The position numbers and the translations under genes are program-made. A stretch of DNA of 64,000 bases. Origin: Microbotryum violaceum. Lineage: Eukaryota. The stretch lies in contig CDLV01000014.1 of NCBI GenBank assembly GCA_001244265.2, positions 992,001-1,056,000 on the forward strand, read 5' to 3'. The notes beneath the pieces were generated by a model. It was given only the letters and a program-made list of their open reading frames with translations. It had not been told where the DNA came from and made no database searches. Positions 26,343 to 60,987 of the stretch are shown one piece after another (the first letter of the stretch is position 1; each line of letters opens with the position of its first letter).

Positions 26343-27806
26343 GTGCCGGGTTCCGGGGATGTTGGTGCGGAGTCGAGCGTCCGAACGAAGCCCTCGGGCT
26401 TATAGTCAGGATGTCCCTCGAAGTAGCCTGTCAGGTCAGAACTTGAAGCGATTCCATTTATGCCTGCCCATTGTCTGATACAAATGTCGTAGATTGATTC
26501 GAGAATGTGTTACTGTGTGTTACAATAGTTGGTGCTCGTGTTAGAACTGAGGCGGGTCTGATTTTGCGCTGAGCGGGGGGAGGCTAGAAGAGACAGCTCT
26601 GTGGGCGATTGCACAAGTACTCCCTAATAATAGGTCAATCTCATTAGCAAGTTGCCCTAGTCCTGGGGCCATCCAGCAACCCGGGTTGCAGGCGGGCAAC
26701 ATGTATGGCTACGCCGCGCGGAAGCGAGGGTCGAAGGCGCGCCGCGCGCGCCACTTTTTAGCGTGCTTATGTATATAGCCAGAGGTGAATAAAACCTACC
26801 TGATGTTGGCTCAGCGCAGTCAGAGGACTGACAACTATGGTCACAGCCCGGCGTCCGTAGACCAAATACATGGCTTGAAATATCAAGCTCTTCCCGGAAC
26901 CCGTTGGAGCAATGACGAACACAGTGTCATACTGATTTCGAGTCTTGAACCGCTCATGCTGAAAAGTCCCGCGAGAGCTTCGATTTGCACCGGCCGGGGG
27001 ACAAAGTCCTCGCCAAATTTGTCGACCAAGAGGAGTCTGAGCTTCTTGCGTAAATCAATCGGGTCAACTCGATCTTTTTGAGTTAATTGTGATCTCCAGT
27101 GAGCAGCCCGAGAGCGACGGGTAGGCAGTTCGGGGGTTGTTTTGGTAGAGTGATGGTCCCTTGATGTCGTTGGCTTTGCCCTCGAAGCTGATCGTAAGGG
27201 CGACTCTCTGAACTCACTCGATGGAGACCGACGAGGTGTGCCCTTGACAGGTGTTGGCGTTTGTACGGGCATGGTGGATCATGAGGGCGGTAGCGACGTC
27301 GTGGACTGGCGTTGTGGACCGAAGGTGAGACCGGTGAGGCGCGGCTGGAAGAACCGTCCCTCTGGGTCCGTGCGCGAGCCAGCTCCAAGTCGAAAATAAC
27401 AACTTCTCACCGCTGTAGCTCAATGAATAGGCTTTGTAAGAGTCTTTCCTTGGGTACATGCTCGAAAGAATAGCATAAGAATGCTCCTATTGAAACAGAT
27501 TGTATAGGTTGATTTTATTTGCCATGCTACAGCAAGGTGGTACTTTTCTGGGCCAAATTTCGATAGGCAACTCAGCCAAACGCGCCGATAAGGTACAAGC
27601 GCAAGCCCCTCCACAGAGTGGAGGGTTTCGAGCTTATAAGTCGACGGCAGCCTGCACGCGGCGTGCCACGGCCCACGGCCCACGGCCCACAGCCCACTAT
27701 TACAGTCCGACTAAGAAGCTTATCAAAACTTAGAGGCGCGTGGGCCGGAGTCGTGACCCGGCATTTTCGTGTTCGTAATAGCATTCCAGACTTATCATTC
27801 ACATTC

Positions 27807-50805: not shown

Positions 50806-53800
50806 TCACAATTCGACGGTCTGAATCCGTGTCCCCGGTGCAACCTTACCCCGAGCAACTTTTCTTTGCGACTCTAGCATCCTCTCGACGCTCTCATCAA
50901 GTTCGCCGTAGAAGCCATATCCAGCAAAGTCGCTTTCTTCAAGATCGATGGATCCCGACCTGAGATGACTCGACATTGGTTTCCCGCTCCTAGCATCAAC
51001 CTCGCCCACGAAATGATCGACAAAGACCGAGTTAGGCTTGCGGTTCGCTTCGGCGTGGAGCTGTCGCATCATGCGATAGACCTCGATAAAGTACTGTCGG
51101 AGGGAATCGAGGAAGCGCTGGGTCTGGCGATGTTTGGATGCGGCACAGAAAGCGATAGAGTCGTCTTTTATGATGTATCCGACTGTGGAACGCGGAAGTT
51201 GAGTAAGGATTTGTGGATCAATACAGGAACAGCGCCGCCCCAGAAAGCAGAACGTGCGGAAAGAGCTCACTTCCAAAGCCATCAGGGGTGACTGCCCCAA
51301 AACCGAACAGGCGCAGCGCGGGGTTGCCACAATTCGAAGTCGACAGGATTGAAGCGTTGAGTGTGGCGTACCCCGAATCCTTGAACAAAGCCGGTACAGA
51401 CTTCGTGATGCTAACTCCATCCGCACCAAGCGGCTCGTCAGAATCGAAGTCCAAATCCGAGCCCGAGCCCTCGGCCCCGTTCGATGCATGCCCATTCTTG
51501 GATCGTTCTTCTTTGTCTTGCTGCATCCGTTGCTGATGAAGGCAATACATCGCGTAGAGAACACGATCTTGGCCGAAACCTTTCGAGCAGGCTTTGGTCA
51601 ATTCGGTGTGGGCTTTGCAAGCAGCACGAAGGGCGTTAATCTTGTCCCGCGGGGGGGCGTCAGAGCAGAATGTCTTGACAAAGGCAACGGACCTGAGGGT
51701 TGAGGGATAGCCAGAGTACGCGATGAGCAACATGCAGGCTCTGTATGGGAATATCGAGCGGAGCTTGACCTACTCCGGAGTGACCGGTCTGATTGCCTCC
51801 GTGCGACCGTGCAAAAACGATTTCGTCATCGCCGGTTCGTACGTCGATTCTGTTCTTCCATAGAGCGAGAAGTATGCCGCTTGGTATGCCATTTGCACAA
51901 AAGCGTCGGGGGAAAATCCATGCTGCGTAATCGCATTCTTGCCATACACTTCGAATTCCAGCGCAACGACCTCGTTCGAACAGATCAGATCGCTGAGGCG
52001 AGTCTCAGCAAAGCGAACAGCAACTTTGAGATCGGGAGTCATGACCCATTCGAGCTTCTTGGGTGCGGTGTCGATGTCTTCGGGTGCTTCGTCACTCTGA
52101 CCCTTCGCAGGAAGCTTCTTGCCTCCACCGGTTGCCCAGGGCGAAACTTTGGCTTTGAACAGCGTCGAGGAAGCCGAGTTGATCGATTTCGCAAATCGGA
52201 GAATCAGCTCCGTATAGACGTCGGCGACGAAGCGGAGCACGGTGTGTCCGTCAACCCCCGAATGCTCAAAGTTGATTCCAGCAGCGCCGTTCTCGGCTAC
52301 GATAATTTGGAGCTACATAGCTCAGAACCAGTCCCAGGCAAATCAGCATGGTAGCATCGGGCAGCAGAGAACGACTGAATTCCATTGTACCAACCTTATC
52401 GTAATATCGGTTGGTGCAGGTGCCGACTTGAACGCCTTTCTCTAACTTGTACGTTCCGCCTGCAATTGTCAATGAGCCACTTGGCGTTGGTCAGGGTCAA
52501 GCACGCGTACAGCAGGAGCTAGAGCATCCACGGTAGAAAAACGCACAAAGCATGTTTGTCGCGATCTCACTTGCGGTCCCCGGATTCGCATCATCGAGGC
52601 AGACAACGAATAGAGCCTTGTCGAGCACGTCGAGGCACATCGAATTGCCTTGGTCGCTCATCAGTCGCTCACGGTGACCTGCCCAGATTGCTCGACGCTC
52701 TGTGCTCAGCACTCCCAGAGCGGATTGTGCGACTTGATTGCGAGGGGTTCGTGCCGCGTCAGAAACGATCGCGGTCAAGTTAGAGAGCAGCGCCCGCTCC
52801 GTGAGGCAAGGCCGGTTCTTCGAGTCAAGGACCTGAATGCCCAGCCAGTGGGGGTCAACACGGGTCCAGATCTGTGAAGTTCCGGTCCCAGATAGGGGTT
52901 GAGCTCACATCGAACCAGTAGAATTGACCGCGCGCCATAACGACGATATGCCTAGACTCGAGATCGACTTGCATTTTGCACCCAGTCCTGAAAACGTTTC
53001 GGGTAGGAACCGATTAGGGTACCAATCGTGGTTATAGAAAGGCAGCGTTCAACTCACCTCGTAGGGATCCGCGCGGTACCAAAGAGCTTGGCGTATTGAC
53101 TCATGTCCACTGAGAAGCACCATCGTGAAGACGCATCGTGAGTCAGCACAAACCATCGTCGAAGCGCAACCAACGCCCGTCGGCCGAGGGCTTGATGAGC
53201 ACAAAGTAATGCCCGCCGCGAAGGTCGCCGGAATGGACGAGCACGCCGTGCAATTTGTAGTTGTACGACTCGGAACGATCGGCTTGTTCGGACAGGTACG
53301 GTTCGAGATCGATTTCGAGCGGGAGCAAAGACGGGAGACGGGCGACGTACAAGGCGTTCCTCGGAATTCATCGGGCTCCAACTGGCCAGTCCTGAAGTCG
53401 TGGACGAACCCTAGACTGGCGAGGATGAGTGAACTTGCTCGCATCAATTGGTTGCCTCGAGCAGGAGTTGGATCGTCTCTTTGAAACACGGCCGAGCATA
53501 CGGGATGAGTTCGTGAGCTCGACTTGCTTCAGTACCTCCGAGGTTGGTCTCCCTTTCGGACGGAAACCAGCTTCGATCAACTTACTCGAGGATAAAGAAA
53601 GGGTTGAGGCTGAGCACGACCGAATCCGAATGCGACAGGTAGCTCTCAGTCCAGAACTCCTCGATGAAGCTGGCTCGGGTCGAGGCATACTCGAGCAAGT
53701 CCTTGTGCAGTGCGGGGCCCTCCTTGTGCAGGAAGTCGTTTACGACTTTCTTGGTACGTGCATGCTCGACTGGACCCTGTTCGTATGTATAGAGGGGTAA

Positions 53801-54176
53801 GCAAGAGCGGGGAGCGGGGAGCAGGATGGCCGACAACACGATTTTGTTCGGGTCAGGCCGCGAGCGAGGTGCACTTGGGCTTGAGTGGGGTGTGGGGCGC
53901 CCCGCCTACGCAGACAACGTCACCCGGCAGCCACGGAGCAACTGCACTCGCAATCTCGCAGTCCTCAATGCGAGTTGCACGGACACTGACCTGTAGTCCT
54001 TCGAGAGCGCGGAGATATCGCTTCATCGTGTCTTCCAATGGCGGGATCGGCAGATGGGGTAGTTTGTTCTGATGTTGCATCGTGCGACCGCCGACCGAGA
54101 CGGGGCCATCCGGTGGAGGGCCCTCGAGCACGGCGTGACTGACGCTGATTCCGGCCACCTTGGCTGAGCCCGACAT
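50806..54176 (-). CDS. YAT1: Carnitine O-acetyltransferase (Yat1/FacC type), multi-exon
   Basis: LPHLPIPPLEDT, SVVLSLNPFFILE, NRYYDK, GINFEHSGVDGHTVLRF, SPDAFVQMAYQAAY..YEPAMTKSFLHGRTE and LSTSNCGNPALRLFGFGAVTPDGFG. Confidence 0.93.
53155..53322 (-). pseudogene. Fragment of USP7/Ubp15-type ubiquitin-specific protease inside an intron
   Basis: PLEIDLEPYLSEQADRSESYNYKLHGVLVHSGDLRGGHYFVLIKPSADGRWLRFDD (USP His box), within intron 53110-53350. Confidence 0.88.
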
Positions 54177-54751
54177 GATGGACAAGAGTCCAGTCAGACG
54201 GGGAGTCGTGTATGTAGGGCAGAGGTCGGGAGGGGTGAGCTCCACCGATGTACGTGTGTGCGGTGTCGAAAGGGTGGGGTAGGTACCACCGGTGCGGAGG
54301 AGGCCAACCTACGAGTACAACGGTCCCGAGTGGATAGACACTACTAGCACTACTCGCTCCGAGCTCGTCCCCACCGCGACGGACTCAAGTTTTGCGCGGA
54401 GCGCGATTCCGATCCGACTTCATCCGGGCGATCACCCATAACCCGATCACCCCGCATCCCCGATGTGCATCGCACTTGATCAACACTCGATGCCTTGAAA
54501 GGTGAATAGCCGGATTGTTCCGAGACTTTCAGGTCATCCCAGAGCCTATGTCTGATTGTGTTGATACCGAGTCGAAACAAAATAAGCGAGCCCACTGCAG
54601 TGCCCACCCTCAGTCGAAGACGGCACATCACGTGCATCGTCGGGCTCGGCCTCACCACGATCCTGGAACTACGAGCTCTGACTGGTTGCAGTGACCAGCG
54701 GAATGACTGGGCCAATGTGCCAACCAAGGAAGAACACCGTTCTAAGTAGCC

Positions 54752-57417: not shown

Positions 57418-60400
57418 TTACAGCGAAACCAGTCGTCCCTTGGACTCCTGGATGGACGCGCGGAGCTCCTCAAATGCCGTTTCGGCGATCGGCTCCAGAG
57501 GATCCGACGAAAATCGACGGCGACGAGAGAGCTTCCAGATCGCGTGGAAGAAGAGTAGACGCAGCTCGACGGGTCGGCGTTCCGAGCGAGAAACGACCGG
57601 GCACACGAACTGAACAAAGTCGGGGTGTGGGATAGGAGTGAGCGCAGACCAGAGGCGGCGGGCAAACGGGCAACCGACCGCAAGGTGTGCCAGGGTCTCC
57701 GGAGCCTCCGACAGGCACATGACACATGCGGTAGATCGATTGTGGAGAGAACGGCTATTTGGAGAAGCGATTTGGCTACCTGGATGAAGTGAACCTAGGG
57801 AGAGGAGGTGGGCCGTGTCTTCGGCGTCCGAATGAACCCTGCGAATCTTGCGTAGCGCCTTCCACCAGGCATTCCAGCGTTGCTCGGGGAGACAGAAAAC
57901 CCTCTGATGACCGAGAGGGAGGATAGGAGGGTAGAGGAAGGCTTGGTGGCGTTTGGACGCGTTCACAAACGAAGACGGAGTCATCACCTCGCCATCGGGT
58001 CCTCGGAAAAGCGTCGGGTTCACCGAGAGTCGGATTCCGTGGCCTGCTGGGAAGTAGAGGACGTGTGTTGCCCACCGCTCCAGATTCGGGCTCTTGGAAA
58101 GTTCGGGGGGTTCAGCGTTGTCACCAAATCCCAGGCTTCGAAAAAGCGGATCCATCGTGGAGGGAGCAGGGCCTTCGTCTTCCTCACTGCGCGTTCCCAC
58201 TGTGGAGGAGGGTGGCAAAAGTAGGCCCACCAGATCCAGACCCACGAGCGACGATGTGGGTTGGGGCCTGATTTGGGCAAGGTAAAGGGGGTGCGTTCGT
58301 TCGCCGCCTGAAGGCGAGTGCGGATGTCGAAGAGGTGCCGAATGAAGCAGCCGTCCGGGTCCCGAAGATGAAAGACCCACTTGGCGTGATCGACCGCGAG
58401 GCGCCGAGGTAAGTCAATCAAGCCAAAGCCGCCGTGGTCGAGAGGGGTGCAGAGGCGCAGCCGAGAGACCTTCGGGGTTTCTGAGATCCGTCCGAGGCTC
58501 GACCGTGGATAGCGATCATGACCGCGTCCTCGATCTCCTTGACGACGCTCTTGGAAGCTGGGATGAAACGATTATGGTAGAGAATCTTCGTGTAGCAGTA
58601 GATATTGATTATCGAACATTTCGCTGCGTACGGAAGGTCGTACATTGGGATGGATCGTATCCGGGCGACGGTCGCGGACTTGACCTCCTCCCAGCCCGCA
58701 TCCTCGGCGATGTCCACCCCAACCTGCACTCCCAGGTAACGAAACTGCGAGTCGCTGAGACGCCAGGACCCGAGGTGTGAAGGGATCGGACGGTCCCTGA
58801 ATGACCCGAGGGGGTAGAGGAAAGATTTGGCGTTGCTGAGCTTGCTGGCACTTGCCCGCTCGTACAGCTCGATCGCCCGATTGAGGTGGTCGAGGTCCGA
58901 GGTGTCGTGGAGAGCACAGCAGGCATCGTCGGCAAAGAGAAGTTCTCGTATGGTTGGGAGTCCCGGGCTCGCGATGCCCTTGACTTGTGACCGCAACTGT
59001 ACGGCGAAGCCCTCAATTGCGAGAACGAAGAGCGACGGAGCCAGCGGGTCGCCTTGTCGAACTCCCGAGAGGATATCGAACGCGGCCGAGAGCCATCCGT
59101 TGAGGTAGATTGAGGCGGATTGGTTTGTATAGGTCGCTCGGTACCATTGGCAGGCTTTCGGGCCAAGGCCAACGGCGCTGAGGACTGCATCGATGTAGGT
59201 GTGGGAAAGACGGTCGTAAGCCTTCTCGAAGTCCATCACTGCGAGCAGACCGGACACCGGCTCTGAACCCGGGAGCCCAGGATCCATGAGACACTGCACC
59301 TCGGCGATGTTCGTGCCAATCCAGCGGTTCGGAATGAAACCGCGCTGGGTCGAGCCGATCAGGGTCTCGAGCAGAGGGGCAAGGCGCTGGTTGTGGGCTT
59401 GGGAGATGATGCGTTCATCAGCGTTGATGAGTGATATGGGGCGTTTGTTCACCAGCCGATCCCTCTCGCCGCGCTTGTGGATGAGGTGGATGTGGGCAGT
59501 GTGGCGGGCCGACGTTCGAGAACTGGCGTCGTCGGTGGGGATCGAGTTGATGACGTCGCGGAGGATGGGGCCTGTGGCTGTCCACGTTGCGCGGTAAAAC
59601 TCGACCGGGAGACCGTCGGGTCCAGGCGAGGAGTTCGACTTACACGCCTCTTGTGCCTTTGTTATCTCCTCTAGGGGGTACACTCCTTCGAGCTTGTCCG
59701 AATCGGCAGGGGATAGGCGAGTCGAGGCGAGACCGTCGATAATCTTCTCCAAGGCGTCGTCATCGATAGCGCGATCCTCGTAGACCCCTTCGAAGTACTT
59801 GCTAGTGGCTCCAAGCATCGAGTCGGGGTCGGAGTGGACGACATTGTCGACCGAGAGGGAAGGGATGAGGTCGGATGCGCGCACTTTGCGTAGGCGGATG
59901 AAGATGGAAGATGGGCCCGCGAGGGAAGGATCAATGCGGGACCGCAGCGCCGCGCCGTAGCGCGAGTGATCTGCCTTCGCCTCCTCCGATCCTCCACGTC
60001 GGAAGCGGGCAAGTGTGCGAGCCAGAGCCTGAAGCTCGGGCAGCAAGTGTTGTTTGGTGGACGTCCAAGCTGCTGATGGGTCGTCGGGCGTCTGGAGGAG
60101 GGCTTCATTGTAGAGGGCCTGGACAGTGGAAGTGAGGTATTCGCAGGTCGCGTCGCCCTCGATCACGTGCAAACCCAACTTGAATTTACCCGGACCGATG
60201 TCGATTGCGCCCGGCACTTGGAACCGCGCCGCCACCATCGAGTGCGTCGATTTGAGGACAGGAGCCCAGATTTTGTGGTCGTGGAAGAGGTCGACCCAAT
60301 CAGGCGAGACATAGATGCGGTCAAGGCGACGGCACGTGCCGGGCGCTGAGCGATTCGTCGTGGCTCGTCCTTTGGGATGGTGAAGCCGATAGACATCAAA

Positions 60401-60987
60401 GAGGTTGTTGGCCGTGGCAAGGTCGCGCATCTCCTGGCCCCCATAATTCGTCCCGTTTTGGTTCTCCGAATCGAGGGGTTGGGACTCAACACAATTCCAG
60501 TCCCCCCGACTAAGAGAGCAGGCGGCGAGGGCTCGTCGCGCACGACTTGTCGGAGGGCTGTGCTGAGATGTGAGAGGAAACGCTTTTTGTCTGGCTTGTC
60601 GGAGGAAGGCGCGTATATTGATACAACCCGGATTTTTGAGTCTCCCACGCGAAAGGTGGCGTCGGTGACTCGGTCGGGGAAAGCGAAAGAGGCACGAAGA
60701 GTGTTGGGAGGTGACTCGGGATCAATAGTGATGACCACGGAGTCGCTCTTCCAGAGTATAGCGGTGTTGTTGAGAGGAGTGAAAAGAGCGGAGAGCTTTA
60801 AGTCTTGGCACTCCTGAGTCCACTGGGCAACCCTTTCCGGGGAAGGTCGGCCCGTTTCGCTCAGGAGAAAGACATCGGCGTTATGGGAGCGGAGATTGGA
60901 GAAAAGAGAGGCACGCTTACGATCTTCATTGATTGACTGCACGTTGGCAGCAACAAAAGACACGTTTGGGATCTTAATTGTGCTCAT
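57418..60987 (-). pseudogene. LINE ORF2 (APE endonuclease, reverse transcriptase, zf-RVT-like), two apparent frameshifts
   Basis: NVQSIN..LLSET, RRLDRIY, SPGPDGLPVEFY, RPISLINAD, DFEKAYD, GVRQGDPLAP, LFADD, YLGV and CVMC..ETLAHLAVGC. Frame changes near 60505 and 58470. Confidence 0.93.

Follow-up and report, generated by a model that had tools for sequence, protein, structure and literature searches.

How does an uninterrupted piece of a deubiquitinase gene come to lie inside an intron of another gene, and does it do anything there? The question is raised by a stretch of 64,000 nucleotides (nt) from Microbotryum violaceum (GenBank assembly GCA_001244265.2, contig CDLV01000014.1, positions 992,001 to 1,056,000 of the forward strand; hereafter the window, in whose coordinates all positions are given). 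The window carries a carnitine O-acetyltransferase gene, the host gene in what follows, and intron 3 of this gene contains a fragment of an exon of the genome's own UBP15/USP7-type gene. Most likely, this fragment was captured by end joining at a chromosome break and has remained as a neutral scar.

A deubiquitinase fragment inside an acetyltransferase intron

An earlier interpretation made from the DNA letters alone (the sequence-only reading) had stated that intron 3 encodes, on the sense strand and without stops, the His-box and Asp region of a USP7-type deubiquitinase, and had staked this claim on a significant match to USP or UCH profiles. Such a match was found, and it is far beyond chance: the 74-codon frame fits the Pfam UCH profile (PF00443) with E = 1.4e-14 and 54.8 bits (cut-off 23.9), covering profile positions 174–233 of 254. 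Among solved structures it is matched best by USP7, with 26 distinct chain sequences at E = 4.5e-13 to 2.3e-12, ahead of FAF-X/USP9X as the next family (4e-7). Among 5.8 billion proteins, the top match is UBP15 of M. intermedium (P0001), with 93% identity across 77% of the query, and the remaining matches from Microbotryomycetes show 82–91% identity to the peptide. In the alignment, the homologous part extends from PLEIDLEPYL through RFDD. It comprises 56 complete codons, which align to USP7 residues 428–483 and, counting the junction codon, share 93% identity with UBP15 of M. intermedium. The histidine in GGHY and the aspartate in FDD presumably correspond to the catalytic residues His464 and Asp481 of human USP7.

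The fragment is out of frame with the upstream exon, as the sequence-only reading had it: codons of the USP frame start at 53367, 53364 and so on, those of host exon 3 at 53372, 53369 and so on. It also fails as a functional deubiquitinase gene, with only a partial UCH domain and no Cys box, start codon or promoter. A window-wide scan compared 582 stop-to-stop open reading frames (ORFs) of at least 60 amino acids (aa) with Pfam at E ≤ 1e-4, a scan that shorter or domain-free fragments would escape. Matches were obtained for 18 ORFs; the captured piece gave the only UCH match (1 of 582), and it alone sits within an intron of another gene. No second copy of the fragment was found within the window by blastn or tblastn.

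The structure of the host gene is well defined. The carnitine O-acetyltransferase of Microbotryum lychnidis-dioicae p1A1 Lamole (P0121, 774 aa) is reproduced exactly when threaded through the window (exons 54176..50806, minus strand), with nine introns of 214, 107, 241, 70, 76, 87, 82, 81 and 88 nt, all of them GT-AG. The exon at 51770–52312 (180 aa) is 100% identical to P0121 and 95% identical to the M. intermedium acetyltransferase (P0122), and five ORFs of the window match the Pfam family Carn_acyltransf. Protein identity thus assigns the window to M. lychnidis-dioicae. Intron 3 (53350..53110) displays U2-type features, namely GT, a branch-site motif, AG and a precise exon joint; its length of 241 nt and the motifs GTACGT and GCTGAC had been described correctly, and its 3′ end reads CAG. 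The insert sits 26 nt past the 5′ splice site and 6 nt ahead of the branch-site motif. Since it lies between the donor site and this motif, every splicing signal is intact. Its length had been put at 168 nt and is corrected here to 171 nt (53324..53154), from the contig sharing described below. When it is removed, an intron of exactly 70 nt is left (26 + 44, or 241 − 171), in keeping with the predicted normal intron of about 70 nt; five of the eight other host introns measure 70–88 nt, and the rest are those of 107 and 214 nt. Table 1 gives the positions of all features.

Table 1. Positions of the captured fragment, the host gene and the parts of host intron 3 in the window.
Feature	Position	Strand	Remarks
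Captured UBP15/USP7 exon fragment (donor in the same genome), 171 nt	53154..53324	minus	Encodes PLEIDLEPYL...GGHYFVLIKPSADGRWLRFDD, including the catalytic His box and Asp
Open frame, USP7-like peptide	53143..53367	minus	74 codons plus stop; only codons 17–72 are complete donor-derived codons
Carnitine O-acetyltransferase coding region (host gene)	50806..54176	minus	10 exons, 9 introns; splicing reproduces P0121
Host intron 3, 241 nt	53110..53350	minus	GTACGT...GCTGAC...CAG
Host exon 3, 128 nt	53351..53478	minus	Spliced model
Host exon 4, 52 nt	53058..53109	minus	Spliced model
Intron 5′ remnant, 26 nt	53325..53350	minus	With donor site GTACGT; from sequence
Intron 3′ remnant, 44 nt	53110..53153	minus	With branch-site-like GCTGAC (53147..53142) and acceptor CAG; from sequence

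The donor gene and the borders of the insert

Public sequencing runs containing 52800–53800 were sought, and the contigs of four of them were aligned on 52500–54200 at 80% likeness, namely X1 (organism A, DNA, possibly the source of the assembly), X13 (organism B, DNA, study P4), X17 (organism D, low depth, study P6) and X19 (labelled B, RNA-like). In both X1 and X13, a single 171-nt contig represents 53154–53324, and its ends are overlapped by 30 nt by four flank contigs. This is the signature of a two-copy repeat. Two of the flank contigs are the acetyltransferase flanks; the other two continue as a UBP15 exon. Read along the minus strand, the donor sequence upstream of the shared part contains a 3′ splice site (..ccacag), after which it codes for I-N-D-R-H-E and supplies the first base of F; downstream, the D is completed and followed by R-V-V-P-V-T-D-R-E. 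Both donor flanks agree with M. intermedium UBP15 on either side of the shared part. A UBP15 contig of X19 reads N-V-K-I-N-D-R-H-E, which confirms a donor intron between K and I. In X13 the shared contig reaches a depth of 52.4 and the four flanks 24.6–30.2, which fits two copies.

Because the two non-host flanks continue as genuine UBP15 exon, the donor gene is intact in the same genome: the fragment is a copy and was not cut out. The proposal of a templated insertion of another gene's coding sequence is thereby supported, with a donor exon elsewhere that shares the 171 nt and an insert made of donor sequence only. The copied piece is internal to a single donor exon, with its start 19 nt past the exon's 5′ end. 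It crosses no intron, and DNA and complementary DNA (cDNA) origins are therefore indistinguishable; of the suggested patching 'from DNA or cDNA', the insertion stands, and the check for a cDNA origin proposed there, a span over a spliced intron, cannot work on this piece.

The two joints read as blunt. On the left, the host has C and the donor T just before the insert, giving 0 nt of microhomology; on the right, one G can be assigned to either host or donor (0–1 nt). The insert begins and ends where donor homology does, and nothing was co-inserted. The claimed lack of poly(A), terminal inverted repeat (TIR) and target-site duplication (TSD) also held when examined: among six direct-repeat families and eight inverted pairs in 53050–53420, no TSD or TIR brackets the insert, and no A-run or poly(A) occurs at either border. 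An 8-mer across the right joint, ACCATCGT, recurs at 53119 (33 nt downstream); it was rejected as microhomology, the background chance for two joints being about 10%.

Several observations concern the donor gene in public databases. The M. intermedium model P0001 has 26 extra residues (VGAPRNSS...RSPQ) between ..QNVK and INDRHEF.., at a point that coincides with the 3′ end of the intron in X1 and with the K-I joint in the messenger RNA (mRNA) of X19. They are probably an unspliced intron in the deposited model. P0122, too, contains additional residues (SELFRHASS...), in this case where intron 9 is located. UBP15 of M. lychnidis-dioicae is not among the best 120 of 242 significant proteins obtained with the 74-aa peptide, nor among the best 120 of 3387 obtained with P0001 residues 470–720; the closest protein listed in these searches is that of M. 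intermedium (93%). The acetyltransferase of M. lychnidis-dioicae is present in the database, yet no UBP15 protein with the His-box region is among the matches listed for this species. Short-read assembly graphs are interrupted by the 171-nt repeat just where the catalytic exon of UBP15 lies, and this may be why the protein or its model is missing. In M. intermedium, UBP15 (locus tag ..5665) and the acetyltransferase (..5754) both lie on contigs sized 1,446,674; donor and acceptor may thus share a chromosome, at a distance of about 89 genes, provided that gene order is conserved.

Reality and age of the insert

In X13, contigs run from each host flank 30 nt into the insert, and in X17 contigs bridge both joints, with 104/71 and 127/47 letters on either side. 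X17 covers 12 of 30 bins at a depth of 3–4, and its uncovered parts are uninformative. Contigs that support the junctions come from three studies, and only one of these may be the source of the assembly. The sequence-only reading had named unspanned junctions as the mark of a misassembly; contigs of other studies support both junctions, the insert is genuine, and misassembly is ruled out. In favour of a chimera, with the insert not truly in the intron, short-read graphs do break at this 171-nt repeat, but junction-spanning contigs in the runs of three studies and the identical structure of the public gene model leave this only the minutest chance.

The samples that share the insert are nearly identical to the window outside it. 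Over 1701 nt, X13 differs outside the insert by one substitution and one 1-nt deletion, and inside it by one substitution (53244); X17 shows no difference in about 440 flank letters. Three differently labelled organisms have the insert in common, and because of their near-identity it can be dated only to before their very recent split. The description of the event as 'recent' therefore holds in a relative sense: the insert is shared by three near-identical organisms, and the copy may already have diverged from its parent, by roughly 4 of the 171 sites.

Splicing of the enlarged intron

The joint of exons 3 and 4, EFRGTP|LDMSQY, is found in P0121 and in its M. intermedium orthologue P0122. An RNA contig of X19 joins 53109 to 53351 exactly, skipping 53110–53350, and also lacks the four further introns that it covers (214, 107, 70 and 76/77 nt). 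Of 944 exon letters in this contig, 23 depart from the window (about 2.4%), which indicates a related lineage. No RNA run was listed among the public runs containing 52800–53800. According to PMC4469406, the public gene models of the M. lychnidis-dioicae strain were built using strand-specific RNA-Seq. The joint seen in the relative's RNA and in the annotated protein makes it most likely that the intron, now 241 nt long, is still removed from the transcript. As 241 is not a multiple of 3, its retention would shift the host frame.

Copy versus parent sequence

At 53223–53218, the intronic copy encodes Leu-Arg, where all seven aligned homologues have Val/Leu-His; the six Microbotryomycetes among them uniformly have Val-His. 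The letters for Val-His are also found in the UBP15 mRNA of X19. The two X17 contigs disagree at 53219 and 53223 within their 27-nt overlap: the one at 53198–53371 has the Val-His letters together with two synonymous differences (53245 and 53281), and the one at 53050–53224 carries the letters of the window. The shared 171-nt contig differs from the window by 0 letters in X1 and by 1 in X13, and the ratio of its depth to that of the flanks is 1.41 (14.3/10.2) in X1 and 1.89 (52.4/27.7) in X13. Logan contigs are simplified graphs in which single-base bubbles are collapsed.

The simplest account of these letters is that the working gene keeps Val-His, and that 4 of the 171 sites would differ, two through drift of the copy and two through silent changes in the parent. 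The odd X17 contig would then be a graph path that leads from the parent to the host flank through the 43 shared letters 53282–53324, and the single contigs of X1 and X13 would hide single-base bubbles; the X1 ratio fits this, the X13 ratio fits near-identity instead. The 171-nt contig of X13 has G for C at 53244 (Val to Leu in the old frame); in a collapsed contig, this may be a change in the copy only or one in which both loci are alike. Mutation of the copy by a process like repeat-induced point mutation was considered and rejected, as the changes at 53219 and 53223, which may be private to the copy, are not C-to-T in a TCG context.

Origin of the insert

The insert has the properties of a templated insertion: its donor is retained, there is no TSD of at least 5 bp and no poly(A), and its size falls within tens to a few hundred bp. 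As read from the host and donor letters, its joints show 0 and 0–1 nt of microhomology. Blunt joints, donor sequence only, and the lack of repeats or poly(A) are best read as the capture of a free fragment by non-homologous end joining (NHEJ). In the proposed course of events, the chromosome would have broken inside the original 70-nt intron 3, downstream of the donor site and ahead of the branch site. Into the gap, end joining would have ligated a free piece of 171 bp, a copy of mid-exon sequence from the UBP15/USP7 gene of this genome, with the donor gene left intact. All splicing signals would have survived, and the intron, grown from 70 to 241 nt, would still be spliced out. The insert would be a selectively neutral passenger, neither coding for a protein nor functional in itself. 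What we infer comprises the break, repair by end joining, the neutrality and the source of the fragment (a DNA by-product or cDNA). Nucleosome repeats and Okazaki fragments have sizes close to 171 bp; this is noted as an idea only and not as evidence.

Other routes differ mainly in where the fragment came from and how it was joined. It is possible, although doubtful, that the patch derives from UBP15 mRNA, with a partial cDNA made by the reverse transcriptase of one of the many retroelements in the genome and captured at the break (the class 2 route discussed below). The insert is sense to the transcribed exon and consists of exon sequence only, an apparently intact RVT_1 frame lies in the window (58421–60721), and patches of this kind in human cells have been attributed to RNA in the account given in PMC5110952. 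Nothing discriminates in favour of this route, however: the piece crosses no exon–exon joint, starting 19 nt after the donor 3′ splice site, and carries no poly(A). Synthesis-dependent copying, in which a broken end invades the UBP15 exon at a microhomology, copies 171 nt and switches back (as in microhomology-mediated break-induced replication or synthesis-dependent strand annealing), is unlikely. Templated insertions formed in this way are documented in PMC11724301, and donor and acceptor may share a chromosome, their M. intermedium locus tags being 89 apart. Priming microhomology is lacking, though; the bases differ at the left joint and at most 1 nt is common at the right, and a recurrence such as that of the right-joint 8-mer is expected at about 10% of site pairs in the window. 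The synthesis-primed route is less likely because neither broken end has donor homology just outside the copied piece. Carriage by a mobile element, either through capture of the Helitron or Pack type or through retroposition mediated by a long interspersed nuclear element (LINE), is highly improbable, even in a genome described in PMC4469406 as rich in Helitrons and containing LINEs. The insert borders coincide with the homology borders and no element sequence lies alongside; TSD, TIR and poly(A) are absent, and the fragment occurs once in the window. A processed pseudogene made by a LINE is at odds with a piece internal to one exon that has neither poly(A) nor TSD, and capture of the Helitron or Pack type with the absence of element termini, a remainder that is simply a 70-nt intron, and the single copy in the window.

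A different kind of alternative holds that the intronic copy is not inert, and either undergoes ectopic gene conversion with the UBP15 exon or is kept for a regulatory role. In X1 and X13, one 171-nt contig per run serves both loci, 0 and 1 letters from the window, and the X13 ratio of 1.89 fits near-identity; both the close relative X17 and the 2.4%-diverged X19 have the Val-His version, against Leu-Arg in the window. On the other hand, contigs may collapse single-base bubbles, the X1 ratio of 1.41 fits about four differences better, and the conservation of Val-His in homologues suggests that the real gene keeps it. As to regulation, no Rfam match was found in 52800–54200 except one at chance level (E = 0.36) at 53588–53637, on the exon 2–intron 2 boundary, and the RNA of intron 3 folds no better than its shuffles (z = +1.23; 176 of 200 shuffles at least as good). 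The insert lies in sense orientation, and therefore there would be no pairing with UBP15 mRNA and no double-stranded RNA. UBP15-like RNA is indeed present in the acetyltransferase pre-mRNA, as the sequence-only reading had noted; it is in sense orientation, and there was no sign that its presence matters or that the insert has a function. An active copy is thus quite improbable. The same grade applies to its most specific form, in which ongoing gene conversion, in the lineage of the window, has carried Leu-Arg, adjacent to the catalytic His and replacing an otherwise invariant Val-His, from the copy into the functional deubiquitinase gene; if this were true, a neutral repair scar would be a reservoir of mutations for an essential enzyme.

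End-joining capture followed by neutrality remains the preferred reading, and four points weigh against it. No empty site was seen among the runs aligned, so that a microdeletion may be hidden and the pre-insertion sequence and true microhomology may differ from those read here. The RNA that shows the splice comes from the diverged lineage X19, whose intron may or may not contain the insert. One of the bridging X17 contigs may be a graph path that crosses between parent and copy. Finally, neutrality is an assumption, and genes for RNA interference are present in the genome according to PMC4469406.

Relation to known insertions at repaired breaks

Templated (filler-DNA) insertions at repaired breaks are a known class, of which this insert is a natural member that will not surprise a specialist. 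In human cells, class 2 templated insertions at induced breaks measure 73–414 bp (median 191 bp), a range that takes in the 171 bp found here, and have neither TSD nor poly(A) (Onozawa et al., as reviewed in PMC5110952). The present insert resembles them in being a heritable patch of a few hundred bp from a distant intact locus, with joints apparently of the end-joining type and no TSD or poly(A). Unlike these human insertions, which are attributed there mostly to RNA templates, it is found in a basidiomycete, and consists of an exon piece of a housekeeping enzyme in a 70-nt intron. Capture by NHEJ at double-strand breaks in yeast, where genomic, mitochondrial and retrotransposon DNA is inserted (PMC11724301, PMC12214859), offers a fungal parallel, with pieces of about 10–1000 bp, scattered donors and microhomology of 0–4 bp (median 2 bp; PMC11724301). 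The yeast events, as presented in these sources, followed induced breaks in the laboratory and often in repair mutants, whereas the present one is natural and shared by three labelled organisms. Introns can also be gained or lengthened when breaks are repaired in an error-prone way with filler DNA (PMC3020277, PMC3443670 and PMC3296678), a process that likewise adds foreign sequence and leaves the reading frame unharmed; here, in contrast, no new intron arose and an existing one grew. Like USP7/HAUSP-UBP15 genes, the insert has 56 homologous codons; unlike them, it is a fragment, intronic and out of the host frame. No published description of this insert was found in the literature searched.

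Other features of the window

The reverse transcriptase frame at 58421–60721 (minus strand) has 767 open codons and a complete RVT_1 domain (E = 2.2e-20), and lies about 4 kb from the start of the acetyltransferase gene. Further long open frames without Pfam match extend up to 63999, and the whole looks like an intact retroelement. Judged by these frames, a reverse transcriptase may be available in the cell.

Intron 1 of the host gene (53777–53990, minus strand) has 214 nt and 62% GC and is long compared with the 70–107 nt of seven others. It gave no Pfam match in four frames (best E = 0.19) and no recognisable second capture.

At 26770–27150 (minus strand) lies a lone N-terminal helicase piece with a RecQ/DEAD motif I-like sequence ('..APTGSGKSL..SPLTAL..'), which matches Pfam DEAD with E = 7.3e-7 over profile positions 4–62 of 167. 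Neither the rest of the DEAD domain nor Helicase_C was found in 31 ORFs of at least 25 aa scanned down to 25017. It could represent another stray gene fragment, or else a helicase of the telomere type in decay.

Significance

The finding changes nothing that is known about either enzyme. Its value lies in providing a clean natural example, from a plant-pathogenic basidiomycete, of a process known mainly from experiments with yeast and human cells; here both ends of the insert are fixed to the nucleotide, and its donor persists. The insert illustrates one way in which short fungal introns can grow, namely from 70 to 241 nt in a single step. The insert can also serve as a presence/absence marker for dating the splits between anther-smut lineages.

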